Assembly (NCBI GenBank): GCA_022823625.1
Contig: JAJEHQ010000004.1
Span: forward strand, 8,851 to 72,850
Direction of reading: 5' to 3'
DNA: 64,000 nt
Source of the DNA: Gammaproteobacteria bacterium
Lineage (GTDB): Bacteria > Pseudomonadota > Gammaproteobacteria > Arenicellales > JAJDZL01
Both the position numbers and the translations under genes were made by a program. Below, piece by piece: positions 168-29,991 of this stretch (its first letter is position 1; each line of letters starts with the position of its first letter). The notes under the pieces were generated by a model that saw only the letters and a program-made list of their open reading frames with translations, had not been told where the DNA came from and searched no databases.

Positions 168-734
168 TCAGTCAATCGGTATGCGAATCACCACACCACC
201 CATCACATCACCGACCTCAATATCGCTGCGAGGGGAATCCTGGTGGTTGTTGTGACAACTCGCACATGCTTCAGCGACTGCGATGTCTGCGTACACTGCC
301 GCAAAATACCACAGGCCACCAAGTTTTTCTTCACCGTAAAAATTTTCCTCGGGATTATCTGCAACAAACTCGAGTCCTTCCCTTTCCAAATCCGTTACCG
401 GACCATTTTTCTTGTTGATCGGATCCAGTGAAACAAGGGAATAGGAAAATTCTTCCGTCAGATCTGAAACGTATTCTGAACCGAACCTGAACATCTGTGC
501 CGGAAGCGGTAAAGCCGCATCGTCATCAAAATATTCCGAAGCAGTGATGACCTTTTCTTCTTCCGTGAGACGCTGAACTACCTTCTGAGTGTACACAGCC
601 CGATCAGCGGAGATTACCAGATATAGCATATCTGCTACTTGTTCATGCGAAAGGCCTTCCGCAGAGACATCCATAGTAATTGTGAACATCAACGAAAGTG
701 CCGAGATACCCAATATATTGAAGCGCCTTTTCAT
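168..734 (-). CDS. Secreted c-type haem protein, DUF3365/Tll0287-like
   Basis: 188-aa ORF with a signal-peptide-like N-terminus (MKRRFNILGISALSLMFTITMDVSA). A single C-terminal CxxCH (CASCH) is followed by GDVMGGVVIRIP, the layout I associate with DUF3365. It is the last gene of a same-strand trio. Confidence 0.65.
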   Translation of the reverse strand: MKRRFNILGISALSLMFTITMDVSAEGLSHEQVADMLYLVISADRAVYTQKVVQRLTEEEKVITASEYFDDDAALPLPAQMFRFGSEYVSDLTEEFSYSLVSLDPINKKNGPVTDLEREGLEFVADNPEENFYGEEKLGGLWYFAAVYADIAVAEACASCHNNHQDSPRSDIEVGDVMGGVVIRIPID

Positions 735-923
735 CGTCTTTCTCGCTGTTTTGTTAAGCTAATTCAGATTTTAGTGAATATTTGGAAATAATTGATCCCT
801 AAGAAAACCATTTGGTGTCAGATCTTCGTTCAATTTCAACTTCTGGCAGAAACAGAACTGTCCCCGTTGTAGCAAATTTCAAAGAACCTCGCCAGACTTT
901 TATTGTTTGTTGGAAAATTGTGG

Positions 924-2453
924 CTAATCGTCCTGTTTCTCCCGTTCTCTGAGTAACGCCCATTCGATACTTTCAACATGAACATCTGCCCGGCCGCGAA
1001 AGTTGCGCTTGATCAGCTCGTCGTCAGCAAGGGAGTCCAATGCAAACTTGAGTCCGTGACAGTCGAGACAAACAGGACGGATCATTTTTTCGTTCGGTCT
1101 GAGGATATCGTTTTGATTGTGATCAGTCACAAGATTTCCCCGCCTTTCTACTTTTGCCATATGACACGTTGCACAACTGACCCCTGTACCAAGACTTGCT
1201 TCACCTGCAACTTCCGCCAGCCACAATGTGTAATGCGGGCTTTTACGATAAGCCTCGCTGTGCATGTCGTCGTGACAGGTCAGGCAAGCGTCAACTGCGG
1301 CGTACGCAACATTGACAGAATGGGGGTCGTGGCAGGAACCGCAACCTACTGATAGATCAGCCGCTTCACTTCGCATTGGCAACCGCGCTTCGGCGACCGT
1401 CATATACATTGGAACTGCCGGGTCGGAAAACCACTCTTTAATGAATGAAGGCGTAATGTGTGCGAGTCCGTAAGAGTTCAGTTTGCCGTCGATGTCGCGT
1501 GGGTTTGCAATCTTGGGGTGTTGACGCATGCCATGTCGACCTTTACGAAAAGTATTCTGCTCGAATTTGTGACAATCGGCGCAAATTTTTTGACTCGGTT
1601 TATCTTCCCAAACAGTCTCAACACCAGCTGAATCTGAGCCATTTGCAATTGCAGGCGCATGGCAGCTGGTACAGTTGATTGCGTTTATTGCGTGAGCCGA
1701 ATCAGCCCAATCACGAAGGATGGCGGGGTTTGATAGTGCAGCTGAAGGGGCTTGCGCATCGTGGTGCATCAGGCGCTCGTCTTCGGAATTGTATGCGAGA
1801 CGCGCTTGACGGGTAAGCTCGTGAACAGGTCTTTGCGTGAGCCAATCTGTTTGTGCATGCTTAACCAGAAAATCGCTGTAAAGCACCCGGTTGTCATGGT
1901 AGTTGTGGCAACCCGAACTTGCGCACGTATCGAATGAAAGATCTGCGTGACTGGTTCGAATCAATCGCACGTCCTGGTCCCCTTCAGAATGGCATGCAAT
2001 GCAAAAGTTCATCGCGACCGTGACTGCACTTTCTCGCGTTATTTCCGGTCGATGCTCGGTGTGACAGGTTGTGCATAAACGTGCATCGAGCTTGTCCCAG
2101 AATTGTGCCATTCTCGGATTACGAAACTTCTTGCGCGGGTGGCTGTCATCAGATTTAGCCAGTTCATCTTCATGGCAAGTTCTGCAGGCCTTGTTCATGG
2201 CTTTCACAGCGGCTGCTGGGCGGCTGAAAATTGGCGCTTTATGACAGGTTTCACAAGCAACCTCTATCTGGTGGTGAGCATCAGTGGTTTGCCCCACAAG
2301 CAGCAGCTCACGATTGCCGCCAACCGTCATCCAAACCCCAACAATCACAATCGCAATCAGTGTTACCAGGAACCAGCTCCAAATAAAAATGAATTTTTTC
2401 GATATTCCAAGCAACTGCTCAATACAGATAGACGATAAGGATATGGACAACAA
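924..2453 (-). CDS. Membrane-anchored multihaem cytochrome c (10 CxxCH + 1 CxxxxCH)
   Basis: 509-aa ORF with an N-terminal TM helix (FIFIWSWFLVTLIAIVIVGVW). Haem motifs seen: CETCH, CRTCH, CTTCH, CIACH, CASSGCH, CTSCH, CADCH, CGSCH, CLTCH, CATCH, CLDCH. Confidence 0.85.
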   Translation of the reverse strand: MLSISLSSICIEQLLGISKKFIFIWSWFLVTLIAIVIVGVWMTVGGNRELLLVGQTTDAHHQIEVACETCHKAPIFSRPAAAVKAMNKACRTCHEDELAKSDDSHPRKKFRNPRMAQFWDKLDARLCTTCHTEHRPEITRESAVTVAMNFCIACHSEGDQDVRLIRTSHADLSFDTCASSGCHNYHDNRVLYSDFLVKHAQTDWLTQRPVHELTRQARLAYNSEDERLMHHDAQAPSAALSNPAILRDWADSAHAINAINCTSCHAPAIANGSDSAGVETVWEDKPSQKICADCHKFEQNTFRKGRHGMRQHPKIANPRDIDGKLNSYGLAHITPSFIKEWFSDPAVPMYMTVAEARLPMRSEAADLSVGCGSCHDPHSVNVAYAAVDACLTCHDDMHSEAYRKSPHYTLWLAEVAGEASLGTGVSCATCHMAKVERRGNLVTDHNQNDILRPNEKMIRPVCLDCHGLKFALDSLADDELIKRNFRGRADVHVESIEWALLREREKQDD

Positions 2454-3603
2454 GAAGAGCGGGCAAGGGAAGCAGAAAAACTATGTGGGTTTTGACGGGT
2501 GCCATACGCATTTTTTTTGTTACAGGAACCCCCCATTTCCTTAATTCGGATGATCCTCCAATCAGAATGCCAGCAAGTGCGCCTGCAATCAGTGCCACCA
2601 GATAAAACAGCATCAGGGCAGTGTTCAAATTCGCACCGAGGCGAAATCCGGTATGGAGAAAAAGCGTGAGGACACAAACAAATCCAAGCAAGATATGCGT
2701 GAGTTGCCAGGTGGAATAGTTTCCGAATCGGGTCAGCAGTCGATTTTTAAGCACAATGACAATCAATAATCCCACCAGGGTGAAACCAAGAAGCAAGTAA
2801 CCAGTCCATTGTTGCCATAGGGAATCGTTCCACAAGTATTCAAGCAAGGTAGGACCAAATTGATTTGGAATCGGTACCCGGGGCGACAAAAGAGTTGCAA
2901 CAGCAAACAAACATCCAATGATCGACAGAACGAAATTTGCTTTCTGCCTGCGCGCTGTCTGAGCCCGAATCTTCAGGATTTGCCTGCGCTCTATTGAGGC
3001 GATTCGATTAATCACCTCTCTTCCGATGAGATCGAGACGACGCAGAATTTTCATTCGCGGCTGACATTGTTTGATTTGCGAATCGCTCAAGATTTCAGGA
3101 AGCAATCCGCAGGCATCCACTAAACATGCGATGGCGGCATCTGCGGGATTAGGAATATTGTCGGACAGCACCACATCCTTAATTTGAACTTTGATGTCTT
3201 CCTTCGAATCCAAATCAGTCGTTTGAAAGGTTCGGGAACGAAACAGCCATAGAATATTTCTGTCTTTCTGTTCCACCGCCCCACTTTGCGCGAGACTGGC
3301 CAATGCAAGTTCTTGGATGGGAAGTGATCGACTTGAAGCGAGTGTCTCGATCCAATGCTCGGTATCGGCGGATTTGGAATGTGCATTTATTTCAGACAAA
3401 ACGCGATCCATTAATACATTTCCCATTGGCGTTTCATCCAAAACGATTAGCGAGTTCAGGTCGGTGTCAATTCGTCCTGAAAGTGAAAGGTCAAGCAGAA
3501 CAGCACCTGCAAGAACACTGTTGATGTACTCGTTCTGATCGGCAACAAAAATTCCATCCTCGTTTTCCAAAAGCAGGAGTATGTTGTCGGTAATTGTCAA
3601 CAT
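2419..3603 (-). CDS. GPP34/GOLPH3-like domain fused to a 5-TM, four-histidine (putative di-haem b) membrane domain
   Basis: The N-terminal half matches the remembered GPP34 pattern (ILLLLENEDG, LAGAVLLDLSLSGRIDTD, VLDETPMGN, PADAAIACLVDACGLL). The C-terminal half has 5 hydrophobic helices, two with H-x13-H. The start is set at the ATG at 3603 (M56 of the track ORF), because the upstream 55 codons read into an IS inverted repeat. Confidence 0.7.
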   Translation of the reverse strand: MLTITDNILLLLENEDGIFVADQNEYINSVLAGAVLLDLSLSGRIDTDLNSLIVLDETPMGNVLMDRVLSEINAHSKSADTEHWIETLASSRSLPIQELALASLAQSGAVEQKDRNILWLFRSRTFQTTDLDSKEDIKVQIKDVVLSDNIPNPADAAIACLVDACGLLPEILSDSQIKQCQPRMKILRRLDLIGREVINRIASIERRQILKIRAQTARRQKANFVLSIIGCLFAVATLLSPRVPIPNQFGPTLLEYLWNDSLWQQWTGYLLLGFTLVGLLIVIVLKNRLLTRFGNYSTWQLTHILLGFVCVLTLFLHTGFRLGANLNTALMLFYLVALIAGALAGILIGGSSELRKWGVPVTKKMRMAPVKTHIVFLLPLPALLVVHILIVYLY

Positions 3604-3848: not shown

Positions 3849-4471
3849 TCAATGCACGCGACCGTCAGCGCTACCCGTCAACTCCCCGTCCATCAGCTGT
3901 CGACCCATCAATCCCGCCGCAACCGAGGCCATCTGATCCGATGCATCAGGCTCACGAATGTTGTGCTGTCCAGCCTTCAGTCTGTCTGATTCATGCTTGT
4001 TGCCTTCCAAACCACCAATACAGGTCTCATCCACCCCAACGTGCCAGACATCGAAATCCCGCTGCCACTGAGCACATAACGAATCTTGTGCAGCATACGT
4101 CAGGCAGTTTTCTGCGTAATTCCCAGATCCCGGTGCAGTTTCATCGACGACATGCCCTTTTCGCTGGTCACCAGAAGATAAATGGCAATCGCCCACTTTT
4201 GCAGTGGCACAGGGGAGTCCTCCAGCAGCGTGCCGTGGCGAAACAAAAAATGCCTGCGACAGTCTCGACACTGGCGCGGCAGTGGTTTGCCACTTGGAAC
4301 TTCGTAGGTGTTGGTACCGCCGCAACGGTGACACCCTGCAACACCGGCCTCCCAGATGATCGACTCAAACCACTTGCGTGCCGAGGTTTCATCGGGAATC
4401 ACCTGTATCAGTTGGAACAGCGAAATACCGTTGCGATGCGACTTGCCGGGGACTTTTCTGTTCGGCGCCAT
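3849..4471 (-). pseudogene. IS1595-family transposase, disrupted
   Basis: The N-terminal zinc-ribbon part (CHRCGG...CRDCRRHF...QKTA) stops at a TGA at 4100-4102, exactly where family members have Trp (QKTAW.MLHKIR, which continues in frame after the stop). The DDE start VDETCIGG...NKH lies in another frame (ORF 3849-4334). The tail is degraded. Confidence 0.7.
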
Positions 4472-4516
4472 TTGGATTGCTCAATTGGTTGAACTAATGG
4501 GCAAACAATCAATTAT

Positions 4517-5020: not shown

Positions 5021-6157
5021 TTGAACTCGATTGACAATTCACGCAATGCACCTGTCTTTGTAACCGGTGCAGCCGGGCATGTGGGATCAAATCTCGTGCG
5101 AAGGCTGCTTAATGATAGCATTCCAATTCGTGTGTTGCTAAGACACGAGGACAACAATGAAGGACTGAAAAATCTGGATGTTGAGTGCCACTATGGTGAC
5201 ATTCGAGACTTAAAAGCCACCCGGAACGCAATGGAAGGTTGCCAAGGTGTCTATCATGTTGCAGCGAAAATTTCTACCATCGATGGTAATCGTGACCATC
5301 GTCGGGAAATATTCGAGACCAATGTTCTCGGCACCCGTAACATTTTGCGAGCGGCGCGTGAGACCGAAGCAGGTCGAGTGGTGGTTACAGGCTCATTCAG
5401 TGCAGTCGGTTATGATCTCGACGACCCCTCCTTACCGAGTGATGAGGCGATGCCATTCTATCCCATGGTACGCACGATGCCATATGAGCGCAGCAAGTCG
5501 CAAGTCGAGCACGAGTGCTGGCGTGCAGCTGCAAAAGGTCAGGAAGTCATTGTCGCAACGTGTTGTGCTGTAATCGGCGGCGCTGATTTTTTTCCATCGC
5601 GACTCGGAAAAACCTTGTGCGACTACACCAATGGGAAACTGCGTGCTTACATCGATGGTGGATTCGAGTTTGTCGCTGCACGCGACATCGTACAAGGACA
5701 TCTGTTATGCATGGAGTATGGGCGCCCCGGGGAAAAATACATATTCAGCAGCGAGTTCAAAACCATCTCTGAAATACTGGATTTATACGAGGAGGTTACC
5801 GGAATACCGCGTCCAGCTCGACGGATACCATCCGCCGTCATGCTGGCTTTCTCGGAAGTGGCGAGTTTCTATCTGAGCCGATACCGTCCGGATTTCAATC
5901 AGCGGTTTACCCCTGGTGCCATCCGTCTGCTGAAGTTACGTCGTCATGCCAGTCTCGAAAAAGCCAGGCGGGAACTGGGCTATCAGTCAACCAGTATTCG
6001 AGAGGCGATTAATGACGCCTATGCGTTTCACTACAACCGTCCGAACGCAATAATAAATCCTGATGCAAAATTTCCCACAGAGAAATCCGAATTCGCAACG
6101 GCGAGTACCATGACTAACAAGAATCTACAGGCAACGCCACAAGGAGGCTCAACTTGA
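5021..6157 (+). CDS. NAD(P)-dependent epimerase/dehydratase-family reductase, SdmB-like (sterol C-4 demethylation partner)
   Basis: 378-aa ORF with a Rossmann motif (VFVTGAAGHVGSNLV) and a TTG start. It is translationally coupled to the downstream Rieske gene. The sterol role is inferred from context. Confidence 0.65.
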   Translation: MNSIDNSRNAPVFVTGAAGHVGSNLVRRLLNDSIPIRVLLRHEDNNEGLKNLDVECHYGDIRDLKATRNAMEGCQGVYHVAAKISTIDGNRDHRREIFETNVLGTRNILRAARETEAGRVVVTGSFSAVGYDLDDPSLPSDEAMPFYPMVRTMPYERSKSQVEHECWRAAAKGQEVIVATCCAVIGGADFFPSRLGKTLCDYTNGKLRAYIDGGFEFVAARDIVQGHLLCMEYGRPGEKYIFSSEFKTISEILDLYEEVTGIPRPARRIPSAVMLAFSEVASFYLSRYRPDFNQRFTPGAIRLLKLRRHASLEKARRELGYQSTSIREAINDAYAFHYNRPNAIINPDAKFPTEKSEFATASTMTNKNLQATPQGGST

Positions 6158-7257
6158 GTTCGCTGCATAATTCACCACCAAGTTTTGAGCAAGCTGGAAA
6201 TTTGCGTCAGAAAGTTCGGGCAACCGGCATGGACCCCGACTATTGGTACGCAGTCGAAGAAGTGCGTCGAATCAAACCTGGAACCGTAGTCGAAGTTATT
6301 TTTTGGAAACAGTCTATTGCGCTATATCGTGCAGAAGATGGATCATTTTACGCACTCGAAAATCGATGCGCACATCGCCAGCTCAAACTCTCACTAGGGA
6401 ATGTTCAAGGCTGTCGGCTTGTCTGCGCATATCACGGCTGGGAATATGACCAGACCGGTCGACGGGCCGATATCCCACAAACGAAGTCGGGCGGAAACAA
6501 AGGTCTGAAGCCTTCAATCAAGAGTTATCCTGTCAAGGTTCGCTATGGTCTAGTCTGGCTGTTTCCCGGCAAGGCTGAACGCTCTGAACAACGAGAGATT
6601 CCGGATATTCCAGAACTTGAAGGGCCAAAACGCTGGGCCTGCGTACCCCTCAGCTTCACTTGGTCAGCCCATCACTCGATGATTATCGATAACGTCAGCG
6701 ATTTCACGCACGCCTATCTTCACCGCAAGTATCGTCCGTTTCAGGATGCCGTCCTCACCCAATATGAGACGGTTGGGGATAACGTTCATCTTGCTTATGA
6801 CACGAAGGTCGGACGCGGGCGGATTTCAGGACTTTTTGTGGAGCACGACAAGATTGATACCAACAGCATGACGCTTTGCTTCCAATACCCCTACCAGTGG
6901 TCGAATACCGATGAGTGGATAAAACACTGGTTATTTGTTTTACCAATCGACGAACGGACCACACGAGTATTTTTTCTGTTTTATTTCAAATCTTTAAAAA
7001 TACCCTTACTGCCCATAAGAATTCCCCGCTTTGCAATGAGCGCAGTCATGAAAATCTCAAACCGCATGATGATTGCTCCCTTGTTAACTCAGGACAAAGT
7101 TGCCGTCGAGGCAGAACAACTGGGTTACGAGGCACACTGGGACGCACCTCCCATTGAATTCAATCCGGTTGTACGCGAGTTTCAAAATTTAACTGTTCGC
7201 AAGTGGGAAGAATACTTGGCCCGTGAATCCATGGAAAACAGTTTCGATAATGCCTGA
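6154..7257 (+). CDS. Rieske [2Fe-2S] non-haem oxygenase, SdmA-like (sterol C-4 methyl oxidase, bacterial type)
   Basis: Rieske motif CAHR...x17...CAYHGW. The TTG start at 6154 overlaps the upstream TGA (TTGA). AAGGAGG lies at 6141-6147, six nt upstream. Confidence 0.7.
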   Translation: MSSLHNSPPSFEQAGNLRQKVRATGMDPDYWYAVEEVRRIKPGTVVEVIFWKQSIALYRAEDGSFYALENRCAHRQLKLSLGNVQGCRLVCAYHGWEYDQTGRRADIPQTKSGGNKGLKPSIKSYPVKVRYGLVWLFPGKAERSEQREIPDIPELEGPKRWACVPLSFTWSAHHSMIIDNVSDFTHAYLHRKYRPFQDAVLTQYETVGDNVHLAYDTKVGRGRISGLFVEHDKIDTNSMTLCFQYPYQWSNTDEWIKHWLFVLPIDERTTRVFFLFYFKSLKIPLLPIRIPRFAMSAVMKISNRMMIAPLLTQDKVAVEAEQLGYEAHWDAPPIEFNPVVREFQNLTVRKWEEYLARESMENSFDNA

Positions 7258-8350
7258 ACCGAACTTTATATCGATGTTGACAACGCTGACGAGCCTGAAC
7301 CTGCTTGAAGCGGCGGGCATGGTTTTGGTATTCGTTGGGGTACTGTTTTTGGGTTCTGTAGTGGTACCTGGACGCCGAATCAAAGGTCCGGATATGGAGG
7401 GCGATACGCGCGAATATAAACTCAATGGTCTTGCGCTGTTTCTGATTACGGTATTTGTGACAGCTATTGTCCAGTCAATGGGTTGGTTTTCGCTTTCGGT
7501 GCTGTATTCGCAGTTTGCCGCTTTGTTCGTGGCTGCAAACGTATTCGCATTTTTACTTGCTACATGGCTTTATTTCCGGGCTACCCGTAATCAGGAAACC
7601 ACTACTGGCTTTTGGCGCAGATATTTTTTCGGTGCGCTGTCCAATCCGACCTGGCTCGGAGTGGACATTAAGCTATTTAGCTATCGCCCCTCTCTCATTG
7701 GTCTCGCACTCTTTAATGCCTCATTCGCCGTCATGCAATACGAAACTTACGGTGAACTGACGCTGGCAATGGTGCTATATCAAATCTTCACTTTTTTGTA
7801 TGTATTCAACTATTTCCAGTTTGAACAGGGAATGGTTCACACATGGGACATGATCAGTGAGCGCTTTGGATGGATGCTGATTTGGGGAGATTATGTCTTG
7901 GTGCCATTTTTTTACTGTTTGGTGGGTTGGTGGCTGGTGCACCCGTCTGATGTGCTGCATCCTATTACCGCAGTAGCAATTGTGTTGTTATTTGGATTCG
8001 GTTTCTGGCTATTTCGCGGCGCCAATCAACAAAAGCACCGCTTCAAACGTAAAGCTGATATCAGGATTTGGGGTCAACCCGCCCGTACCTTGGAAGGTCG
8101 GTTGCTGATCTCCGGTTTTTGGGGTGTTGGACGCCACCTTAACTATACGGGTGAAATTTGTGTCTACTTTTCATTTGCCCTGACCACAGGATTCGAGTCT
8201 TGGGTACCCTACCTCTTGCCTGTATGGTTGACTGTACTGCTGTGTCACCGCTCACTACGTGATGAGCAACGCTGTCGTGCCAAGTATGGCGATCTGTGGA
8301 CGCGCTACAAACAACGAGTCCGTTATTCAATGTTACCGTTTGTCTACTAG
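7250..8350 (+). CDS. Sterol reductase, ERG4/ERG24 family (probable C-14 reductase)
   Basis: Polytopic membrane ORF with the family C-terminus GFWGVGRHLNYTGEI...HRSLRDEQRCRAKYGDLWTRYKQRVRYSMLPFVY. The ATG at 7250 overlaps the upstream stop (ATGCCTGA). The track ORF starts at a GTG at 7223. Confidence 0.8.
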   Translation: MPEPNFISMLTTLTSLNLLEAAGMVLVFVGVLFLGSVVVPGRRIKGPDMEGDTREYKLNGLALFLITVFVTAIVQSMGWFSLSVLYSQFAALFVAANVFAFLLATWLYFRATRNQETTTGFWRRYFFGALSNPTWLGVDIKLFSYRPSLIGLALFNASFAVMQYETYGELTLAMVLYQIFTFLYVFNYFQFEQGMVHTWDMISERFGWMLIWGDYVLVPFFYCLVGWWLVHPSDVLHPITAVAIVLLFGFGFWLFRGANQQKHRFKRKADIRIWGQPARTLEGRLLISGFWGVGRHLNYTGEICVYFSFALTTGFESWVPYLLPVWLTVLLCHRSLRDEQRCRAKYGDLWTRYKQRVRYSMLPFVY

Positions 8351-8377
8351 CGGCAGTAACAAATCAAGGAAGTAACC

Positions 8378-9766
8378 ATGACGACCCTTTCCTCAACACA
8401 TCACACACCGCCACCGGCTAAGAATATTCCGATGCTGACCGGTGGATTGCCCTTGATTGGTCATCTGACGGAGTTTTTAAAGGATCCGGTTTCGATGTTG
8501 ATCCGTGGGTGGCATGAGCAGGGAGAGTTGTTTCAATTTCGTCTCGGTACGCGTAAATTCGTCTTGTTTGCCGGTCCCGAAGCGCATGATTGTTATTTCA
8601 GGGCGCCCCGAGATCACATGAGCGCTAAAGACGTCTATCAATTCACAGTACCAATTTTTGGTCGTGGTGTAGCCTACGACGTTTCCCCCGAACTGATGTC
8701 TGAGCAGTTGGGATTTCTCTACCCGGAACTGCGCGAATCCGCGTTACGCAAGTTTTCTGACATTATGTTTGAGGAGACAATGAATTTTGCTGATGCCATG
8801 GGCCAACAAGGAGAATTGGATTTACCACAGGCGATGAATCAGCTTACGATCAATATTGCCAGTCACTGCCTCATAGGTCCTGAGGTCCGTAATCAGTTGA
8901 ACGCTGGGTTTGCGGAAAGCTATCACGATTTGCAGAATGGAATCAACACCCTAGGCTTTTTCTTTCCTCATTTACCGACACCGGCGCATCGAAGTCGCGA
9001 TCGGGCACGGAAATCCATTTCCGAAATGTTTGAACGAATTGTCATGGAGCGACGGCGTACGGGTGCTAGGTCGGATGATTTCATGCAGAAAGTTATGGAA
9101 AGTCGTTACAAAGATGGCCGTGCGGTTACCGACGAAGAGATTACTGGAATTCTACTGACCGTATTGTTCGCGGGTCAGCACACTAGCGCAGTTCTTGCAA
9201 CCTGGACCTGTTTGGAACTTTTGAATTCGCCGTCGTACATTGACAAATTGCGGAACGAGATGCAGGAAATTTATGCAAATGAAAACGCTTCAAACATTGA
9301 CACCTTAAAGCAACAATCGTTGATGGAGTACACCATACGCGAAAACGAGCGACTACATCCGCCATTGATTTTGTTGATTCGAAAAGTACTCAAACCTGTG
9401 CAATTCGGTGATCATTCCGTACCCGCCGGCACCCTCGCCATGGTATCACCGGCAGCTGCTCACCGCTTGCCTCACCTATTCGCCAATCCAGACCGGTTCT
9501 ATCCGGAAAGATTTGCATCACCGAACCGCGAAGACAAACAACACCGCTACACTTTGATAGGTTTTGGCGGCGGTAATCACATGTGTATGGGGAAGCATTT
9601 TGCCTACCTGCAACTTAAAACGATCTGGACTGTACTGCTTGATCGCTTTGATTTTTTTACCGATCGAGACATTCCTGCCCCGAATTATGGCAGTTGGGTG
9701 ACAGGTCCCAAGGAGCCTTGTCGGGTTCGTTACCAACATCGCTCAAAATCTGGCATTTTCCATTGA
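8378..9766 (+). CDS. cyp51: Sterol 14-alpha-demethylase (CYP51)
   Basis: CYP51 signatures are present: YQFTVPIFGRGVAYDV, I-helix FAGQHTSA, and Cys loop FGGGNHMCMG. There is no fused ferredoxin domain (462 aa). Confidence 0.85.
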   Translation: MTTLSSTHHTPPPAKNIPMLTGGLPLIGHLTEFLKDPVSMLIRGWHEQGELFQFRLGTRKFVLFAGPEAHDCYFRAPRDHMSAKDVYQFTVPIFGRGVAYDVSPELMSEQLGFLYPELRESALRKFSDIMFEETMNFADAMGQQGELDLPQAMNQLTINIASHCLIGPEVRNQLNAGFAESYHDLQNGINTLGFFFPHLPTPAHRSRDRARKSISEMFERIVMERRRTGARSDDFMQKVMESRYKDGRAVTDEEITGILLTVLFAGQHTSAVLATWTCLELLNSPSYIDKLRNEMQEIYANENASNIDTLKQQSLMEYTIRENERLHPPLILLIRKVLKPVQFGDHSVPAGTLAMVSPAAAHRLPHLFANPDRFYPERFASPNREDKQHRYTLIGFGGGNHMCMGKHFAYLQLKTIWTVLLDRFDFFTDRDIPAPNYGSWVTGPKEPCRVRYQHRSKSGIFH

Positions 9767-12700
9767 GCAATAGTCTAGGATTCTATGACGTCGCCATCGT
9801 CGGCGCTGGTCCTGTCGGGAGCGTATGTGCCCTCGCCTACGCAAAAAAGGGCGCTCAAGTTGCTCTGTTCGAAGCGAATCCGAAGGCCTCCAAACGACTG
9901 GCCGGTGAGTGGTTGCATCCGCCGGCTCTTCGAATTCTAAACGAGGTCGGGGTTGAGATTGAATCGCAAATCGAAAGCGTCCCCGGCAACGGGTTTGCTG
10001 TGTTTCCGGAAGACGGCTCGGAACCGATTATACTTCCTTATGCGAACGGGTCCCGCGGTTTGGCATGTGAACATTCAGCACTCGTCTCGCTTCTTCATCA
10101 AAGTGTACAAAATGAGTCTAATATCGACTTTTTTGTTCCAGTTAAGGTTCTTGAAGCCACATCTGGTCAGATATCCATAGCTCTCAACGGAACCAATACT
10201 ACTGTCAACGCCAACCGAATTGTCGGTGCCGACGGTCGCGCATCAACTGTTCGCAAGTCACTGGGATTGCAGACTGGTCGGGTAACCTGCTCGCGTATGG
10301 TGGGGGTGATCGTTGAAGGGGAAGACTTGCAACTGAAGGGTTATGGCCATGTTCTGCTGGGTGGGCCAGGTCCGATTCTCATGTACCAATTGGGGCATGA
10401 TCGCGTCCGGATAATCGTCGATGTGCCGTTGAATCACTGGATTCCGCGTGACCGTATTGGGCTGTTGTCGGAAGCTTACGCCGATCGGCTACCTGAACAA
10501 CTCAGATCTGGATTTGTCGAAGCACTCCAGAACGGAAAATTTCATGCTGCAAACAATGAAATTAGAGCGCGAACGACTCATGGGAATTCAAACCTTGTTC
10601 TTGTAGGCGACGCAGTCGGAAATTACCATCCTATGACTGCGGTCGGCATGACTCTCGGTTTTGGTGATGCTTTCGATTTGGCGATGCACGAGAACTTTCG
10701 AGCATTTTCCTCCAAACGTCACTTGGCAACTCGCGGCCCTGAGTTACTGGCGATGGGTTTGTACGAGATTTTTGCTGACTATCGACGCGAATCAGCGGAA
10801 CTAAGGAGAGCGATTTATAGTAATTGGCGAAAACATCCTTTAGCCCGCAAAGGAACTGTAAGTCTACTTGCTTGTGAAAACACGTCGGTTGTTCATCTTT
10901 CTTTCACTGTTTCCACGATAGTCGCCCTTACGCTCCTTAGACAACTCCCGCGTAACTTTGAAAGACTACCCTGGAACCGTGCATTCAAAGTCATGAATGC
11001 TACCACTGGACGGTTGGTATGGCTGGTGCGCGGCATTATCGCCCAACGTAGAGACCGAAATAGAGGTGGCGAAAAAGACTTTCTTGCCCGTGATTCATTA
11101 GCCCGCGCATTCCTAATTTCCATTCCAACGAGATCCGATGATTCCAGGTCAATTCTCCAAAAGATTCATTCTCCCGATGTCGGTCCTGCCTTGGAGAGGG
11201 CTACAGAGCGTTTGTTGAGTCTCCAGAATGACAATGGCAGCTGGGAAGGAGAAATGGTTTGGTGTCCCATGCTCACCGCCCAATACGCTCTGCTACACTA
11301 CATTCTCGATCAGCCGCTGGAGCCACAACGACGACAACTTATCCTGCTTAGTTTCGAGAAGACTCGTCTTGAACAAGGGGTATGGGGTATGCACGAGCAT
11401 TCCTCACCTCATCTTTTCGTTACCACCCTTGTGTATGTCACATCGAGACTGCTTGGAGTCAGTCAAGATGATCCTTTGATCGAACCAGCGAGGCAGTTCC
11501 TGCAGGCAGAAGGGGTTGTCAATATTCCAAGTTGGGGCAAGTTTTGGCTAGCGCTGCTTAATCTCTACGACTGGGACGGAGTCCATGCTGTACTGCCAGA
11601 ATTGTGGCGACTGCCGCGTTGGTTTGTATTACATCCCTCTAAGTGGTATTGCCACACCAGGCTAATTTACATGGCTATGGCAACAGTTTACTCACAACGA
11701 TACCAAGCACCGATTACATCCACGATCACCTCTTTACGAGAAGAACTTTTTCCCCAAGGTTTTGACAAGGTGAATTTTTCCGAAGCCCGAAACAGTTTGC
11801 GAGAAGCTGATTTATTCTGCCGGCCGAGTCTGTGGCTTCGAGCCGGGTATTGCCTGACAAGAGCGTATGAAAAAGTTCATCTAAAGCGCCAAAGGACTCA
11901 AACTGTCGACAGACTGCTCAAACGAATCAAGTGGGAGTTGCAAACCACTAACCACACAAGCATATCTCCTGTCAGCGGTTTGCTCAATATTCTTGCCTTG
12001 TGGTTGCATGATCGGAATGACTCTGACATGTTGCAGGCGCTATCGCAGTTGGATGGTTGGATTTGGGAGGACGAGGAACAAGGTACGCGAGTTACCGGTG
12101 CAAGGAGTGCTTCGTGGGATACCGGGTTTGCGTTGCAGGCGTTGGCGAAGGTAGCTGAATTAGACAAGGTTCAGAACGCACTCACACATGGCTCTGAATT
12201 TTTGAGCCAAGAGCAAATTGTCAACAGTTTTCAGGGATATCAAGAGGCGAATCGTGCCGACCCTAAAGGTGGTTGGTGTTTTGCGGGAGGATGGCATGGC
12301 TGGCCGGTGTCCGACTGTACTGCAGAGGCTGCACTTGGAATTCTTGCTGTCCATGGCAAAAATTCTGACACCAGCACGTTGAGTGAAGCCGTACAGTTCA
12401 TGTTACGGAGCCAAAATCGAAATGGTGGTTTTGGCAGTTATGAATCAAAACGTTCAATGCTTGGTCTGGAGTGGCTTAATCCAGCTGAGATGTTTGGCGA
12501 ATCAATGACCGAGCACTCCTTTGTCGAATGCACTGCATCGTGCCTTAGCGCACTTAGTGAATTCAAGAGTCATTTCCCACAACTTGCAGACCAGACCGTA
12601 ACGAACGCCATTTCTAGAGGCGAAGCCTGGCTTCGCCGAACGCAAGCGAATGACGGATCATGGCGCGGCGTGTGGGGCGTTCAGTACATTTACGGCACCT

Positions 12701-13143
12701 TGTTTGGGATTCGGGGTTTGCTTGCGGCGGGAGCGAATCCTGGCGACCCGGCACTGCGACTGGCCTGCCATTGGCTGTTAGAGCGCCAACGCAATGATGG
12801 CGGTTGGGGAGAAAGTCACCGAGGCTGCTTCACTGGCCAATACATCGGGCTTGTGGAGAGTCAAGTTATCCAGACCGCGTGGGCTCTCATCGCACTGCTT
12901 GAGGCAGGTGACTCCAACTGGCACGCGATTTCAAATGGAATTGGCTATTTGCTCAACACGCAAAATGTGGATGGAACATGGCCAAAGCAAAATATGGTTG
13001 GTGTGTTTTTTCGCACTGCTCTGTTGGACTATGTACTGTATCGACAATACTTTCCTTTGCATGCATTGTGCCTCTACCAGCAACGACGTAAGATGCGTCA
13101 GTCGGTGAAAGTTGACACTGATTGCTGCACAGTAGCAGACTGA
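9763..13143 (+). CDS. Squalene monooxygenase - oxidosqualene cyclase fusion protein
   Basis: One uninterrupted frame. N-terminal FAD domain: YDVAIVGAGPVGS, VGADGRAS, GDAVGNYHPMTAVGMT. C-terminal cyclase: VSDCTAEA plus QW repeats (RSQNRNGGFGSY, RTQANDGSWRGVWG, ERQRNDGGWGES, NTQNVDGTWP). The start is uncertain. The TTG at 9763 overlaps the CYP51 TGA, and the track ORF begins at a TTG at 9694. Confidence 0.8.
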   Translation: MSNSLGFYDVAIVGAGPVGSVCALAYAKKGAQVALFEANPKASKRLAGEWLHPPALRILNEVGVEIESQIESVPGNGFAVFPEDGSEPIILPYANGSRGLACEHSALVSLLHQSVQNESNIDFFVPVKVLEATSGQISIALNGTNTTVNANRIVGADGRASTVRKSLGLQTGRVTCSRMVGVIVEGEDLQLKGYGHVLLGGPGPILMYQLGHDRVRIIVDVPLNHWIPRDRIGLLSEAYADRLPEQLRSGFVEALQNGKFHAANNEIRARTTHGNSNLVLVGDAVGNYHPMTAVGMTLGFGDAFDLAMHENFRAFSSKRHLATRGPELLAMGLYEIFADYRRESAELRRAIYSNWRKHPLARKGTVSLLACENTSVVHLSFTVSTIVALTLLRQLPRNFERLPWNRAFKVMNATTGRLVWLVRGIIAQRRDRNRGGEKDFLARDSLARAFLISIPTRSDDSRSILQKIHSPDVGPALERATERLLSLQNDNGSWEGEMVWCPMLTAQYALLHYILDQPLEPQRRQLILLSFEKTRLEQGVWGMHEHSSPHLFVTTLVYVTSRLLGVSQDDPLIEPARQFLQAEGVVNIPSWGKFWLALLNLYDWDGVHAVLPELWRLPRWFVLHPSKWYCHTRLIYMAMATVYSQRYQAPITSTITSLREELFPQGFDKVNFSEARNSLREADLFCRPSLWLRAGYCLTRAYEKVHLKRQRTQTVDRLLKRIKWELQTTNHTSISPVSGLLNILALWLHDRNDSDMLQALSQLDGWIWEDEEQGTRVTGARSASWDTGFALQALAKVAELDKVQNALTHGSEFLSQEQIVNSFQGYQEANRADPKGGWCFAGGWHGWPVSDCTAEAALGILAVHGKNSDTSTLSEAVQFMLRSQNRNGGFGSYESKRSMLGLEWLNPAEMFGESMTEHSFVECTASCLSALSEFKSHFPQLADQTVTNAISRGEAWLRRTQANDGSWRGVWGVQYIYGTLFGIRGLLAAGANPGDPALRLACHWLLERQRNDGGWGESHRGCFTGQYIGLVESQVIQTAWALIALLEAGDSNWHAISNGIGYLLNTQNVDGTWPKQNMVGVFFRTALLDYVLYRQYFPLHALCLYQQRRKMRQSVKVDTDCCTVAD

Positions 13144-13337
13144 CCTCAAACTTACCGGAACACTAATTTCGAAATTGAGGTTAATCTATCCGGTACAACG
13201 CATCAGACGGAATTGTTTCAGGTGCAGCGTGGCTCGCATTGCTCAACGGACCCAGCGCTTTCCTTTCAATCTCACTAACTCAATTCGACAGATACTGACA
13301 GCATCGCCGTTAGGTACGGCGATTGTAAAAAGCTGAC

Positions 13338-14399
13338 TTAACTGTTTGAATGATGGGGTTTACGTGCCAAAAAGTAGTACATTGTCGTAAATGTACCGGT
13401 TTCACCACCTTTGACAATTGCATCAGCCGCTCTGTTCAAAATGGTGCTGACCATACGAGCGCCTTTAGGAAACAGTCGTACTCTCTCGCCGATTCTCAAC
13501 ACCAGGTTGGTAATCGCACGTCCCGCAGGTGTACGGGGAATACTCCGGAATGTGATGTCACGTCCTTGCAAGGGGCGATACCAAGGTATATCAGAGTTCG
13601 ATGCGCTAGCTAAGTCGCGCGCATCAAGGACCTCGAATCCAGCCTCGCACAATGCTTCATATACCCCTTTCGTGGTGGATATTCTGGGCAGCGCATTTCC
13701 AATCTCAATGTCTCTGACAATTCGCCTGTGTTCTGCATTTTGCGAATCAAACAATTCAGTTACGCACCAATCGTACCCGGCAAAACTCGCTCCTGGGCGA
13801 AGAACACGCAGTATTTCTCCAAACGCCGCTGTCTTGTCTGGCGCATGGGGCATGGACTCGATGGCGAAAGCACCATCAAAGCAATCATTGTCTTCAGGTA
13901 TCTTCATGTAATCGCCATGAATGAAGCGGCACAGCGACTTGATGTCCTCAGCCTGTGTAACTTCTTTGGCGCGCTTTATTTGGTACGCGTTGTTGTTAAG
14001 CCCTACAAATTTAGCCCCTGAATAGCGAGCCAATTCAGCCATTGGTCCCCCTACTCCGCACCCCACATCGAGAATATGCATTCCAGGTTTCAGGGACATT
14101 TGGTCCGCAATAAAATGCTGATGCCTCAGTAATGACGCCTTAAAACTCTCACCTCGTCGTCGAGGTGCAAAGTGAAATGAATTGCCCCAACCAAACTCGT
14201 AGAAGTCAGTTGCCAAGTTGTAGTAGTGGTTGACAAATTTCTGGTAGGTTTCTTTTCGATGTTCTTCGCCAGACTCATAGATTTTTTCATATTCATTGAC
14301 CACAGAATCGACTTCATCATCGGACAGGGCACCGAGCAGCCCAGAAGAATTCAGTTGTTTGTCAAATACCGATGGTAAATCTTTATTTTCTTCAGCCAA
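13338..14399 (-). CDS. Sterol C-24 methyltransferase (Erg6/SMT family), paralog A
   Basis: Region-I motif FYEFGWGNSFHFAP, SAM motif ILDVGCGVGGP, then NNNAYQI. TTG start. Confidence 0.85.
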   Translation of the reverse strand: MAEENKDLPSVFDKQLNSSGLLGALSDDEVDSVVNEYEKIYESGEEHRKETYQKFVNHYYNLATDFYEFGWGNSFHFAPRRRGESFKASLLRHQHFIADQMSLKPGMHILDVGCGVGGPMAELARYSGAKFVGLNNNAYQIKRAKEVTQAEDIKSLCRFIHGDYMKIPEDNDCFDGAFAIESMPHAPDKTAAFGEILRVLRPGASFAGYDWCVTELFDSQNAEHRRIVRDIEIGNALPRISTTKGVYEALCEAGFEVLDARDLASASNSDIPWYRPLQGRDITFRSIPRTPAGRAITNLVLRIGERVRLFPKGARMVSTILNRAADAIVKGGETGTFTTMYYFLARKPHHSNS

Positions 14400-14445
14400 G
14401 CGAATGATCCTACTGAGTTGAAATAACGAAAGTCATTGAGCAAAA

Positions 14446-21407: not shown

Positions 21408-23417
21408 TCAGGCAGGAAAATCCTTCCATCGTTCTGCAATATGAATTTTCAGTTTTTTACTGACTGACAGGGAGGAATAGGCGTTGAATTTAAACTTGAA
21501 ATTCGGATCTGACAATTCGAGCCTGAAGTGATGTGCGATCATCAACAGATTGACAGCCATATGCTTCACCACCCAGCGTACCCCGAGGCACATATGGGTG
21601 CCCAGTCCAACTGGAGCAAATGAAGTACTGCGATGCGCGTTGGTGGGCGGAAGATAACGGTCAATGTCAAATTTGAATGGTTCTGGGAACGCCTCTTCCA
21701 TAAAATGTGCGGCCCCCATTACAATGAAAACATGTTCTCCAACGGGTAACTCGATGTCATCGACCAACCACGAATTTGACACGTTTCGAGGAATTAAATA
21801 GACGACAGGGTAAATTCGCTGACACTCAAGCACAAAGCGGTGAGTAACGTCGAAATCCGATAAATCTAAGGTCTCTGGGTCTGGATCGCCATTGGAAAAA
21901 ATGGCATCGGCTTCGCTGCGAATTTTTGCATACAAGTCGGGTTGTGTTACCATGGCGTAGATGGCGCAACCCATGAGATCGGAAAAGTACTGGCTTGCAA
22001 GCATCGGCGACGAGAGCATGAACCTCAAATTCGCCTCGGGGAAGAATTGCGGATCGCTGGCATACAAAGAAAGTGTTTCATCAGCAAGTTCCCAAGGTTG
22101 ACCAACCCGTTGTTCAGGCGTATGGTTCTGCTGAACTCTTTTGACAGCATCATCAACAGCTTTGCGACCGCGTTTCATTCGCGAAGTATTGAACAACAAT
22201 CTTGTCACAAACTTGGGTGGATTGAAAACGATGTGGATCATTTGAACCGCGTTCTTCCACTTCATTACATCCTCAAAAATATCGTTCGTTTCCGTACTCG
22301 TAAGAAGTGGCATGATTTGAGCATTAGATAATTTCCGTGAAGTTTCATACACTTGCACATGTGAACCCACTTTCCAATGACTCTTCATGTGGTTACGAAT
22401 CATATCGAAAACAGAATTCATCTCACTCTCAAGTTTCCTGACCGAATAGGCTCGCTGCAAAGCTCTACGCAAAGTGAAGTGATCGGATCCGTCTAGACTG
22501 ACTAGCACCCCGATACCGCCGTATTCATTTTCCACACCTTGATAAAACTTCTTCGATGTCAGGTACTGGCGCCCATTACGATGAACCCAGCGGTTGATAT
22601 CGATACCGGCAAGGAAAGTCATTGGCTGAGTTAAAGGTATGTTAATCCGAAAAACCGAACCATACTCTTTGGCGAAATCTGCAAGCATCGCAGGTATATT
22701 ACCGTTCCAAACGTGTCGATTCGATAGAATCTTAAGCAGTGGAACGGATGGTATTTTTTTCTTGAAACTGGGACGCTGCAGTAACGGAACAGCAATAGAA
22801 TCTTTAACAGCAGCAGCAATTGAGCGACCGATCAGTTCCATCTGACAGATTTGCTCAATTCGTTTTTCTGCTTTTTCATCAATTTCAAAGATGAAGTGAA
22901 ACAAACCACACGAATTAACAAGGCCGACAATGATGATGTCTCTCGGGAGGGGAATTGTGTTAGAAAAAATAGCATCGCTAATTCGCGACTTGATTAACTG
23001 ACTAGCTGTATGTTCTTGAGAGTATCCATGCCACGTCGCGGGAGCCAGCGTCCAGAACTCGCCTTCATGATGCTTCAGAATTTCCAATTTAACCAGACGG
23101 TCAAGCGTGGAATCAATTATGTCCTCCGCGTGGACAGCGAGTCGTTCGATCCAGTAGCGGGCATTGTGAGGAGTCTTGTCCTTCGAGATTGCCTTCAGAC
23201 AAAGATCTAAAACTGGATCACCAGTTTCTGTCGGGTCCAATACAAAAAGTGATTCAATGTCTGTATCAATTCGCGACTGTAGGGAAAGGTCTGCGAGTGC
23301 GGCTCCAATGACAGCGCAATTTAGGGACCAGCCGGGTACTTGATAAAAATAACCGGTCTGCTCGTTTAAAAGCATTAAAACCAGCTCTTCAGGCAAATTC
23401 AAACGTCGGGTCGCCAT
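21408..23417 (-). CDS. GPP34/GOLPH3-like domain - cytochrome P450 fusion
   Basis: Residues 1-~200 show the GPP34 pattern (LPEELVLMLLNEQTG, IGAALADLSLQSRIDTD, VLDPTETGDPVLD, PRDIIIVGLVNSCGLF). Residues ~215-669 are a full P450, with ExxR at ECQR and Cys loop FAPVGLGTHMCLG. Confidence 0.75.
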   Translation of the reverse strand: MATRRLNLPEELVLMLLNEQTGYFYQVPGWSLNCAVIGAALADLSLQSRIDTDIESLFVLDPTETGDPVLDLCLKAISKDKTPHNARYWIERLAVHAEDIIDSTLDRLVKLEILKHHEGEFWTLAPATWHGYSQEHTASQLIKSRISDAIFSNTIPLPRDIIIVGLVNSCGLFHFIFEIDEKAEKRIEQICQMELIGRSIAAAVKDSIAVPLLQRPSFKKKIPSVPLLKILSNRHVWNGNIPAMLADFAKEYGSVFRINIPLTQPMTFLAGIDINRWVHRNGRQYLTSKKFYQGVENEYGGIGVLVSLDGSDHFTLRRALQRAYSVRKLESEMNSVFDMIRNHMKSHWKVGSHVQVYETSRKLSNAQIMPLLTSTETNDIFEDVMKWKNAVQMIHIVFNPPKFVTRLLFNTSRMKRGRKAVDDAVKRVQQNHTPEQRVGQPWELADETLSLYASDPQFFPEANLRFMLSSPMLASQYFSDLMGCAIYAMVTQPDLYAKIRSEADAIFSNGDPDPETLDLSDFDVTHRFVLECQRIYPVVYLIPRNVSNSWLVDDIELPVGEHVFIVMGAAHFMEEAFPEPFKFDIDRYLPPTNAHRSTSFAPVGLGTHMCLGVRWVVKHMAVNLLMIAHHFRLELSDPNFKFKFNAYSSLSVSKKLKIHIAERWKDFPA

Positions 23418-29982: not shown

Positions 29983-29991
29983 TAGCTTTCT

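Follow-up and report, generated by a model that had tools for sequence, protein, structure and literature searches.

A GPP34 domain fused to a predicted di-haem membrane module in a conserved three-gene cytochrome cassette

Introduction

Ferric reductase domain (FRD) proteins such as NOX, FRE, STEAP and MsrQ contain six transmembrane (TM) helices and carry paired histidines on TMs 3 and 5, spaced by 13 and by 12–13 residues, that provide bis-histidine ligation of haem. CbcL of Geobacter and the NrfH, CymA and NapC-type proteins draw electrons from the quinol pool, and the b subunits of such systems belong to other families (HydC/FdnI-like). A purified DUF4405 protein binds haem b, its four most conserved histidines are central, and AlphaFold modelling relates it to PepSY/FoxB proteins and to MsrQ (PMC11334425). 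MsrQ, an FRD-type haem-b protein, is fed in trans by a cytosolic oxidoreductase that uses reduced nicotinamide adenine dinucleotide (NADH) (PMC12525009). Here, we describe a locus in a 64,000-nucleotide stretch of contig JAJEHQ010000004.1 (positions 8,851–72,850 of the forward strand; assembly GCA_022823625.1) from a gammaproteobacterium of the Arenicellales. This whole stretch is referred to below as the window. Three co-oriented genes, all on its minus strand, encode a GPP34 domain fused to five TM helices (GPP34-5TM; gene A), a multihaem cytochrome c (gene B) and a single-haem protein of the Tll0287-like/DUF3365 family (gene C). An earlier note on the window had read them as a transmembrane electron conduit whose cytoplasmic face is a lipid-binding-type domain.

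GPP34 is the domain of GOLPH3 and Vps74. Eukaryotic GPP34 proteins are adaptors that lack enzymatic activity, and the hairpin of GOLPH3 sits at the membrane surface. Fusions of bacterial GPP34 to cytochrome P450 (GPP34_L) and, more rarely, to Rieske and ABC proteins have been reported as specific to sponge symbionts, which are proposed to secrete GPP34 to bind phosphatidylinositol 4-phosphate (PI4P) of the host (PMC11706023). The same study classes proteins by their Pfam domains and makes no mention of transmembrane forms (PMC11706023); GPP34-5TM proteins of ~392 amino acids would count there as "short" GPP34 because Pfam detects one domain in them. The GPP34-P450 fusion is already published; neither the GPP34-5TM fusion nor the reductase-5TM/multihaem/Cache_heme cassette described below was found in the literature searched. 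Stand-alone Cache_heme proteins, the group to which gene C belongs, are the largest group of their family; redox roles have been proposed for them, and a tested member without the axial cysteine binds nitric oxide (NO) (bioRxiv 10.64898/2026.02.01.703092).

Results

The gene A protein contains five hydrophobic helices (residues ~222–243, 266–288, 299–320, 326–350 and 370–394). As the earlier note had pointed out, two of them bear paired histidines: H303-x13-H317 lies on TM3 and H373-x13-H387 on TM5. NOX-type ferric reductase domains have the same arrangement of histidine pairs on TMs 3 and 5. All four residues are invariant in alignments of 29 and of 89 homologues, down to 38% identity, as well as in 52 of 52 sampled members of a wider family that shares the TM module. 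Both motifs were recovered at 77 of the 80 genome loci described below, and the three misses are truncated alignments. The motifs are therefore not chance occurrences. A motif that starts at H317 (H-T-G-F-R-x-G-x-N), together with G268, G341 and P241, is likewise invariant in both homologue alignments. The loops between TMs 2 and 3 and between TMs 4 and 5 have net charges of +3 and +5, respectively, and the remaining loops are near neutral. Under the positive-inside rule, these charges would place H303 and H373 near the inner face of the membrane, H317 and H387 near the outer face, the GPP34 domain in the cytoplasm and the C-terminus outside. The linker helix that joins GPP34 to TM1 is basic, with a median net charge of +4 across the family.

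The wider family emerged from an exhaustive HMMER search in which a profile of the TM module was run against 1.84 billion representatives; a word-indexed search with the same profile returned only 16 matches. At E ≤ 1e-3 the family comprises 737 representatives (50% identity), and at E ≤ 1e-10 it comprises 507. Most of the 737 proteins are 640–690 amino acids in length and carry the module at the C-terminus. In the sample of 52 members, Fer2_BFD immediately precedes the module in 44, a NirB-like reductase (Pyr_redox_2 plus Rubredoxin_C) is present in 27–29 and GPP34 is present in three; a few members have FNR-type reductase or cNMP-binding domains instead. The 680-amino acid protein P0112, a match from the first homologue search with gene A, consists of a NirB-like Pyr_redox_2 reductase for flavin adenine dinucleotide (FAD) and NAD(P)H, Rubredoxin_C, a BFD-like [2Fe-2S] domain, a TM1 of its own and the shared TMs 2–5. 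It aligns with gene A over residues 251–394 only, with 41% identity and all four histidines kept.

Downstream of these reductase-type genes lie orthologues of B and C. Two loci (L008 and L009) contain the P0112 gene followed by the start of a B orthologue. In a third (L010), a BFD-5TM gene that is cut by the contig end precedes genes for a 509-amino acid multihaem cytochrome and a Tll0287-like protein, and in a fourth (L093) a 663-amino acid NirB-BFD-5TM protein is encoded ahead of the same pair. Across the four loci, B is 39–47% identical to its window counterpart, and C is 52–66% identical where the sequence extends that far. The genes that come after the Tll0287-like gene (L010, 2949–3858; L093, 11003–12688) encode a mono-haem cytochrome c of the Cytochrome_CBB3 type and a globin (bacterial globin in L093), followed in L093 by a Fer2-FNR reductase. 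These globin, cytochrome c and FNR-like neighbours provide a hint of NO or O2 chemistry in the wider family.

Two further loci (L011 and L012) carry a split form of the cassette; on one strand, a standalone 201-amino acid 5TM protein is followed by B (59%) and C (65%) and finally by a 219-amino acid GPP34 protein that also stands alone (34–36%). In a neighbour-joining tree of the TM modules, built without bootstrap, the GPP34-type modules and one standalone module cluster in one clade next to the reductase types. The simplest history would be that GPP34 took the place of the reductase/[2Fe-2S] head once and was then kept with the cassette by fusion and fission. Taken together, the comparison strongly supports the earlier prediction of a transmembrane electron conduit, in that the same TM module is elsewhere fused to an NAD(P)H/FAD/[2Fe-2S] reductase and has the same B and C genes downstream.

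The idea that the nearest standalone GPP34 proteins always belong to split cassettes was ruled out by another protein, P0097 (L094–L096, 6656–7654). This standalone GPP34 is 47% identical to the gene A domain and is encoded 10 nucleotides downstream of a STAS-domain gene (anti-sigma antagonist-like), outside any haem cassette; close relatives of the domain thus have other contexts too.

Despite the conservation of its histidines, the TM module falls below the thresholds of the curated haem-b profiles. The earlier note had suggested profiles of DUF4405 (PF14358) and cytochrome b561 (PF01292), and neither matched the window protein in a Pfam profile search; the only match was a sub-threshold one to Ferric_reduct (PF01794) over TMs 2 and 3, with 15.9–18.7 bits versus a cut-off of 28 (E = 0.014 for the full-length protein and 0.002 for the TM part). 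When modules of nine reductase-type proteins were isolated, sub-threshold matches to DUF4405 were found in eight (14.9–21.5 bits versus a cut-off of 26.7; E = 3.5e-4 to 0.04), covering TMs 2–3 in seven modules and TMs 4–5 in one. Prokaryotic cytochrome b561 (Ni_hydr_CYTB, PF01292) matched six of the nine below threshold, at best with 23.4 bits versus 30.1 (E = 5.9e-5), and Ferric_reduct matched one of the nine in addition to the window module. All three are families of haem-b membrane cytochromes. The module, which has the four histidines but lies below every curated threshold, appears to be a relative of the DUF4405/FRD-type haem-b class that existing profiles do not model, and it is predicted to bind haem b. 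Alignment of TMs 2–3 with TMs 4–5 by hhalign brings the histidine pairs into register (E = 0.009, probability 4%), which is no more than suggestive of an internal duplication.

We next consider how widely the three genes of the window occur together. A homologue search with gene A returned ~95 clusters of full-length relatives. Of the metagenomic loci, six had Pfam-annotated neighbours; all of these encode a multihaem cytochrome of ~490–580 amino acids downstream of their GPP34-TM gene, and in five a Tll0287-like gene (153–190 amino acids) comes next. When GTDB representatives, with a single genome for each species, were scanned, 171 relatives were identified, from which 80 loci were kept (L013–L092). 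Where enough sequence was available, 73 of 76 loci have a B orthologue directly downstream of A in the same orientation, and a C orthologue likewise follows in 65 of 72. No further neighbour family recurs in more than ~10 of the 80 loci when their open reading frames (ORFs) are clustered. By this survey, which the earlier note had proposed, A-B-C is a conserved, self-contained cassette with unrelated flanks. Identity to the window is 52–68% for B (excluding two near-identical metagenome-assembled genomes (MAGs) and one short partial match) and 56–81% for C; the values for the TM part (42–73%) and the GPP34 domain (35–73%) of A are lower than both. In one lineage (L002/L003), A and B are separated by a DUF4153 membrane protein gene, and B and C by a Fic-domain gene (9690–11474 and 13282–14265).

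All 80 loci are from MAGs, which belong to the Arenicellales (the source of the window, 98% identity), Defluviicoccus, Pseudomonadales, Ca. Azotimanducaceae and Ca. Poriferihabitaceae. Some of them have bin names (RHO, COS, SB06xx) that we take to denote sponge metagenome bins. The GPP34-type clade apparently consists of host-associated (sponge) Gamma- and Alphaproteobacteria. At least seven MAGs contain paralogous GPP34-5TM cassettes on different contigs, three each in JAJDVM, JAJDYI, JAJEBT and CAZRSJ and two each in JAJDUK, JAJEGJ and JAJEIQ.

The N-terminal domain of gene A, described as GPP34-like in the earlier note, is a true GPP34 fold. Of the outcomes that the note had named as refuting its reading, the two that could be checked here, unconserved TM histidines and a failed GPP34 search, did not arise. 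Pfam GPP34 (PF05719) matches it with E = 1.8e-35 (123.3 bits versus a cut-off of 29.1) over 189 of 201 profile positions, and a PDB profile search identified GOLPH3 (3kn1, E = 6e-17). Foldseek analysis of the AlphaFold2 (AF2) model of gene A, which has a predicted local distance difference test score (pLDDT) of 83, also retrieved GOLPH3 (9qpq and 3kn1; E = 1e-7, TM-score 0.66–0.67) and gave no significant match beyond GOLPH3/Vps74 proteins. The domain is placed in the cytoplasm because it has no signal peptide and because of the positive-inside rule. Residues R44, D46, T47, D66, W84, P151, C165, G194 and R195 are invariant in the alignments of 29 and 89 homologues, and all nine recur in the P450-fused GPP34 of the window. 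At residue 29, 79 of the 89 homologues have cysteine and the window protein has serine. A β-hairpin occupies residues 110–128 of the AF2 model; its tip reads F-L-W-x-F with flanking arginine in most family members, which fits a position at the membrane surface like that of the GOLPH3 hairpin.

The PI4P pocket has a different fate. Its residues in GOLPH3, which we take to be W81, R90, R171 and R174, correspond to Q23, A32, L94 and Q97 in the window protein, so that none of the four is kept. Across the 89 homologues, W81 is replaced by Arg or Gln, R90 by Ala (84 of 89) and R171 by Ala, Gly or Asp, and R174 is Arg in 64 of 89. As judged from this alignment, three of the four pocket residues are lost family-wide and all four are lost in the window protein. 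The domain differs from GOLPH3/Vps74 and bacterial GPP34_S and GPP34_L in its unconserved pocket and in its fusion to an integral membrane cytochrome (predicted) within a three-gene redox cassette. It resembles these proteins in overall fold, in the family-wide R44, D66 and W84 and in the β-hairpin; it resembles GPP34_L also in its location N-terminal to a haem protein and in its apparent habitat, sponge symbionts (PMC11706023).

Gene B encodes 10 CxxCH motifs and one CxxxxCH motif (CASSGCH) behind an N-terminal hydrophobic helix, the composition given in the earlier note for a membrane-anchored cytochrome c, and these motifs are kept in its orthologues. An alignment of 70 homologues, from a family of >2000 homologue clusters, contains the 11 motif histidines and exactly 11 further invariant histidines. 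These numbers fit eleven bis-histidine haems and suggest an all-bis-histidine wire rather than an enzyme. No CxxCK active-site haem motif is present in gene B or in six orthologues, and profile searches gave no match to Cytochrom_NNT (NapC/NirT). Two assignments were rejected. The match to NrfA-type/octahaem nitrite reductases is confined to residues 405–467 (24.5 bits; NCBIfam 18.6 versus a cut-off of 595), and the match to DmsE/MtrA-type decahaem cytochromes (NCBIfam TIGR03508) scores 65.5 bits versus a cut-off of 192.2. A Foldseek search with the gene B model yielded nothing below E = 4.

Gene C matches the Tll0287-like family (PF11845) with E = 5.5e-19 (69.5 bits versus a cut-off of 24.1) and combines a signal-like N-terminus with a single CASCH motif (nucleotides 252–266), in agreement with the earlier description of a secreted single-haem DUF3365 protein. 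It shares with Tll0287/sCache_heme proteins the strict CxxCH and the stand-alone secreted domain. The CxxCH motif, M36, M81 and H164 are invariant in 63 orthologues, and no cysteine outside the motif is conserved; 39 of the 63 have exactly two cysteines. Gene C is therefore not of the Cys/His type represented by Tll0287. It differs from Tll0287 and the P. putida protein in this absence of the axial cysteine and in being always encoded after an 11-haem cytochrome. Candidates for the sixth ligand are M36 or M81, or H164. Position 68 is His in 95% of orthologues and Tyr in the window protein, and a PDB sequence search with gene C gave no match.

Comparison with homologues also refines the gene models. 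The ~90–95 homologues of gene A are 391–394 amino acids long and begin with MLTF, which favours ATG 3603 as the start; an upstream ATG at 3768, which gives the 449-amino acid gene call held in the database, is probably not used. The longest ORF of gene B begins at TTG 2453 and overlaps gene A by 35 nucleotides, an overlap that the earlier note took to be real. Orthologues of gene B are 491–497 amino acids long and start 7–14 nucleotides past the stop codon of gene A. An in-frame TTG at 2414 encodes 496 amino acids and lies 4 nucleotides beyond the gene A TGA. This TTG is most likely the start, and the overlap probably arose because the longest ORF had been chosen.

Table 1 Features of the cassette and of its surroundings in the window
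Feature	Position	Strand	Remarks
Gene A, GPP34-5TM fusion	2419..3603	−	394 amino acids plus stop
GPP34 (GOLPH3/Vps74-fold) domain, residues 8–197, predicted cytoplasmic	3013..3582	−	Pfam, PDB profile, Foldseek
GPP34 clade motifs R-I-D-T-D (44–48), D-A-C (163–165), D-L-I-G-R-E (191–196)	within 3013..3582	−	
Basic linker helix, residues 198–221	2941..3012	−	runs on into TM1; single helix 192–239 in AF2 model
5TM module, residues 222–394, predicted di-haem b cytochrome, N-in/C-out	2422..2940	−	hydropathy, AF2 helices, loop charges
H303 codon, TM3, cytoplasmic side	2695..2697	−	invariant; proposed inner-haem ligand with H373
H317 codon, TM3, periplasmic side	2653..2655	−	invariant; proposed outer-haem ligand with H387
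H373 codon, TM5, cytoplasmic side	2485..2487	−	invariant
H387 codon, TM5, periplasmic side	2443..2445	−	invariant
Gene B, predicted periplasmic 11-haem cytochrome c with N-terminal helix anchor	924..2414	−	496 amino acids from TTG 2414
Gene C, predicted secreted single-haem Tll0287-like/DUF3365 protein (sCache_heme)	168..734	−	188 amino acids
IS1595-type transposase zinc-ribbon fragment	4100–4471	−	123-amino acid ORF, between cassette and sterol cluster
SdmB-like dehydrogenase	5021–6157		
SdmA-like Rieske oxygenase	6154–7257		
ERG4/ERG24 sterol reductase	7223–8350		
P450	8378–9766		CYP51-like by context
Squalene epoxidase (FAD_binding_3/SE, residues 31–409) fused to oxidosqualene/squalene-hopene-type cyclase (501–1129)	9694–13143	+	1149-amino acid ORF
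Sterol methyltransferases (two)	13338–14399, 16210–17283	−	Sterol_MT_C domain
LolA-like protein	14845–15663		
MMPL/RND transporter	18877–21207		
GPP34-cytochrome P450 fusion	21408..23417	−	669 amino acids, GPP34_L architecture; context

The window also contains a complete bacterial sterol-biosynthesis cluster (5021–17283 plus 18877–21207), in which the squalene epoxidase-cyclase ORF joins two consecutive enzymes of the pathway on one polypeptide. The cluster resembles the sterol methyltransferase (SMT) clusters of sponge symbionts described by Brown et al. 2023 (PMC10070321). A functional link between cassette and sterol cluster was rejected: of the 80 loci, only L013 and L014 have sterol genes at a distance of 6 kb or less from the cassette; both are MAGs that are 97–98% identical to the window, so that the adjacency is confined to the species and one near relative. 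An IS1595-type transposase fragment separates the two in the window, and overlapping ORFs on both strands at 3849–4492 suggest a decayed insertion sequence. We consider the adjacency incidental on both grounds. In a related Arenicellales MAG (L004), the cassette is directly flanked by genes that occupy 23712–34355 in the window (glcDEF-like, COQ7, 3-hydroxyacyl-CoA dehydrogenase, glyoxalase and Exo_endo_phos). This comparison points to an insertion of the sterol cluster and the GPP34-P450 gene in the lineage of the window, or to their rearrangement inside the region. The GPP34 domain of that P450 fusion is 30% identical to the gene A domain, and the RIDTD, D..W, C and LIGR residues are common to both. 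A second GPP34 fusion to a haem protein is thus present nearby, as the earlier note reported, but its linkage to the cassette is not conserved.

Discussion

The gene A module is best compared with the DUF4405, PepSY-like (FoxB) and MsrQ proteins. All have four central histidines on two helices, two b haems predicted to stack across the membrane, and a route (predicted for gene A) by which electrons enter on the cytoplasmic side and reach redox proteins outside the cytoplasm. Gene A differs in having five rather than six TMs, a signature of its own (H-T-G-F-R-x-G-x-N) and a C-terminal V-Y-L-Y. Where the others have flavinylated proteins, MsrP or siderophores, gene A is paired with a multihaem cytochrome c and a Cache_heme protein, and the cytoplasmic head is GPP34 or NirB-like/BFD.

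With NOX and the ferric reductases, gene A shares the H-x13-H on TM3, the histidine pair on TM5 and the topology of TMs 1–5, and its reductase-type relatives carry a covalent NAD(P)H/FAD dehydrogenase that would feed the di-haem bundle. The gene A protein has five TMs and ends after TM5. The dehydrogenase of its relatives is N-terminal, of the NirB/Pyr_redox_2 type and accompanied by an extra [2Fe-2S] domain, whereas that of NOX is C-terminal and FNR-type; the window protein has GPP34 in place of the dehydrogenase. Electrons would be accepted by a cytochrome c chain and not by O2 or Fe(III). CbcL and the NrfH/CymA/NapC-type proteins likewise couple a membrane haem protein to an adjacent or fused periplasmic multihaem c wire, but the proposed donor in the main family described here is cytoplasmic NAD(P)H.

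On balance, we lean towards a model in which A, B and C form one electron-transfer chain across the inner membrane and GPP34 acts as a docking adaptor. Two non-covalent b haems would be stacked across the membrane between TMs 3 and 5 of gene A, the inner one ligated by H303 and H373 and the outer one by H317 and H387. Gene B would be a periplasmic 11-haem wire tethered through its N-terminal helix, and gene C, a periplasmic mono-haem c protein of the Cache fold, would terminate the chain, either as redox partner or as small-ligand site. The ancestral and dominant head of protein A would be the cytoplasmic NirB-like FAD/NAD(P)H reductase with its BFD-type [2Fe-2S] domain. Such an ancestor implies a default direction from cytoplasm to periplasm, and electrons would pass from NAD(P)H through FAD, [2Fe-2S], two haems b and 11 haems c to the haem c of gene C.

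In the GPP34 variant of the window, no donor is encoded in cis. GPP34 would lie on the cytoplasmic surface of the membrane beside the inner haem, where it may dock a redox partner encoded elsewhere, with MsrQ and its cytosolic NADH oxidoreductase as the precedent (PMC12525009), rather than sense PI4P or other lipids; this is the weakest step of the model. P450s and Rieske proteins normally receive electrons from [2Fe-2S] ferredoxins, and the usual donor to the 5TM module would likewise be a [2Fe-2S] centre. That background, the lack of a donor in cis, the retention of fold and hairpin, the loss of the PI4P pocket and the residues common to the P450-fused GPP34 together favour the docking role.

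Several points weigh against this model. No haem-b Pfam family matches the window protein above threshold, and Foldseek with the full-length gene A model relates its TM part to cytochrome b561 at E ~1.3, which is not significant. Clustering of ORFs at the 80 loci revealed no conserved trans-acting reductase or fourth cassette gene, which leaves the docking role without direct support, and we know of no redox or partner-docking role for bacterial GPP34. The AF2 model of gene B is poor (pLDDT 63) and unclassifiable and does not decide between wire and enzyme. Gene C, which lacks the axial cysteine of redox-type Tll0287, resembles NO-binding members of its family in that respect. Co-transcription of A, B and C is presumed from spacing and synteny only; a scan for promoters and terminators gave nothing on the minus strand, with shuffled sequences containing more sites than the real one, and is uninformative.

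The earlier note had envisaged GPP34 as a reusable membrane or lipid-sensing adaptor for redox enzymes. In this alternative, GPP34 would be a lipid- or sterol-binding sensor or a membrane adaptor, lipid state would determine the gating or location of the conduit, and the domain would be reused for other redox enzymes such as the nearby P450. The true GOLPH3 fold with its hydrophobic hairpin is retained, the window holds a full sterol pathway and a GPP34-P450 fusion, and proteins that act on lipophilic substrates are found with GPP34: P450s recurrently, as fusion partners or neighbours, and Rieske proteins rarely, as fusion partners (PMC11706023). We nevertheless judge a lipid-sensing role unlikely. 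None of the pocket residues survives in the window protein, an integral membrane protein needs no further membrane anchor, and clustering of ORFs at the 80 loci uncovered no conserved neighbour from a lipid pathway. The sterol genes, adjacent in L013 and L014 only and set apart by the IS1595-type remnant, lend no support to a lipid-sensing link with the neighbouring P450 and sterol genes.

It also seems improbable that the cassette is an outside-in relay for redox or NO signals, in which Cache_heme senses, electrons pass through gene B and the b haems, and GPP34 serves as a cytoplasmic output adaptor. The adaptor character of eukaryotic GPP34 and the globin genes of the reductase-type operons would suit such a relay, and so would the missing axial cysteine of gene C, since the tested Cys-less Cache_heme binds NO (bioRxiv 10.64898/2026.02.01.703092). 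The NAD(P)H reductase head of homologous cassettes, however, points to catalytic throughput rather than signalling. Moreover, an 11-haem protein would be elaborate for this purpose, no signalling output domain or regulator is conserved near the 80 loci, and the invariant M36 and M81 of gene C could provide ordinary His/Met ligation.

It is tempting to speculate that bacterial GPP34 partners with redox enzymes of the haem and Fe-S kinds, a role that has gone unrecognised, because it occupies the place of the reductase head and is fused or adjacent to P450s and Rieske proteins. It might bind a cofactor itself, or it might plug cytoplasmic oxygenases such as GPP34-P450 into the conduit through GPP34-GPP34 or GPP34-partner contacts, in which case periplasmic redox chemistry would be coupled to cytoplasmic oxygenases (e.g. 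sterol-modifying ones) in sponge symbionts. We regard this reading as a long shot. If it were true, the view of symbiont GPP34 as a secreted PI4P effector would be overturned, and an ancestral function of the GOLPH3 fold would be hinted at.

A further reading is quite improbable, namely that GPP34 and the inner haem form a quinone or flavin site and gene A is a self-sufficient dehydrogenase that feeds the periplasmic cytochromes, functionally like CymA, NrfH or CbcL or like the flavin mononucleotide (FMN)/ubiquinone sites of MsrQ. No reductase is encoded in cis, GPP34 would lie at the membrane surface beside TM1, the invariant polar residues R44, D46, T47, D66, C165 and R195 could form a ligand site, and MsrQ binds FMN and ubiquinone (PMC12525009). 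Yet the P450-fused GPP34 has the same residues and requires no quinone site; in the split cassettes, GPP34 is encoded as a soluble protein of its own; and neither Pfam nor Foldseek detects any likeness to flavin- or quinone-binding folds. Finally, according to a published hypothesis, symbionts secrete GPP34 as an effector that binds PI4P and manipulates the phagosomes of the host. The enrichment of GPP34 in sponge symbionts (PMC11706023) and the recovery of all loci from MAGs, several with sponge-type names, might favour it. For the GPP34-5TM subfamily, the hypothesis is contradicted by architecture and has next to no chance of applying, as the domain is covalently tied to a predicted 5TM inner-membrane module, faces the cytoplasm, lacks a signal peptide and a PI4P pocket and belongs to a redox cassette.

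The cassette has several implications. Bacterial GPP34, so far known from comparative genomics only, gains a concrete and testable context as part of a putative cytoplasm-facing, inner-membrane redox machine, a context that conflicts with the idea of a secreted PI4P-binding effector for symbiont GPP34. The putative reductase-[2Fe-2S]-di-haem family, whose members are accompanied by an 11-haem cytochrome and a Cache_heme protein in every locus examined, would be a candidate for an NAD(P)H-driven electron route into the periplasm of aerobic marine Proteobacteria. The natural exchange of heads (reductase, GPP34, or none with a separate GPP34) amounts to a ready-made experiment on GPP34 function. 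Together with the apparent restriction of the GPP34-type cassette to host-associated lineages, its multiple copies per MAG suggest a role in the physiology of symbiosis.

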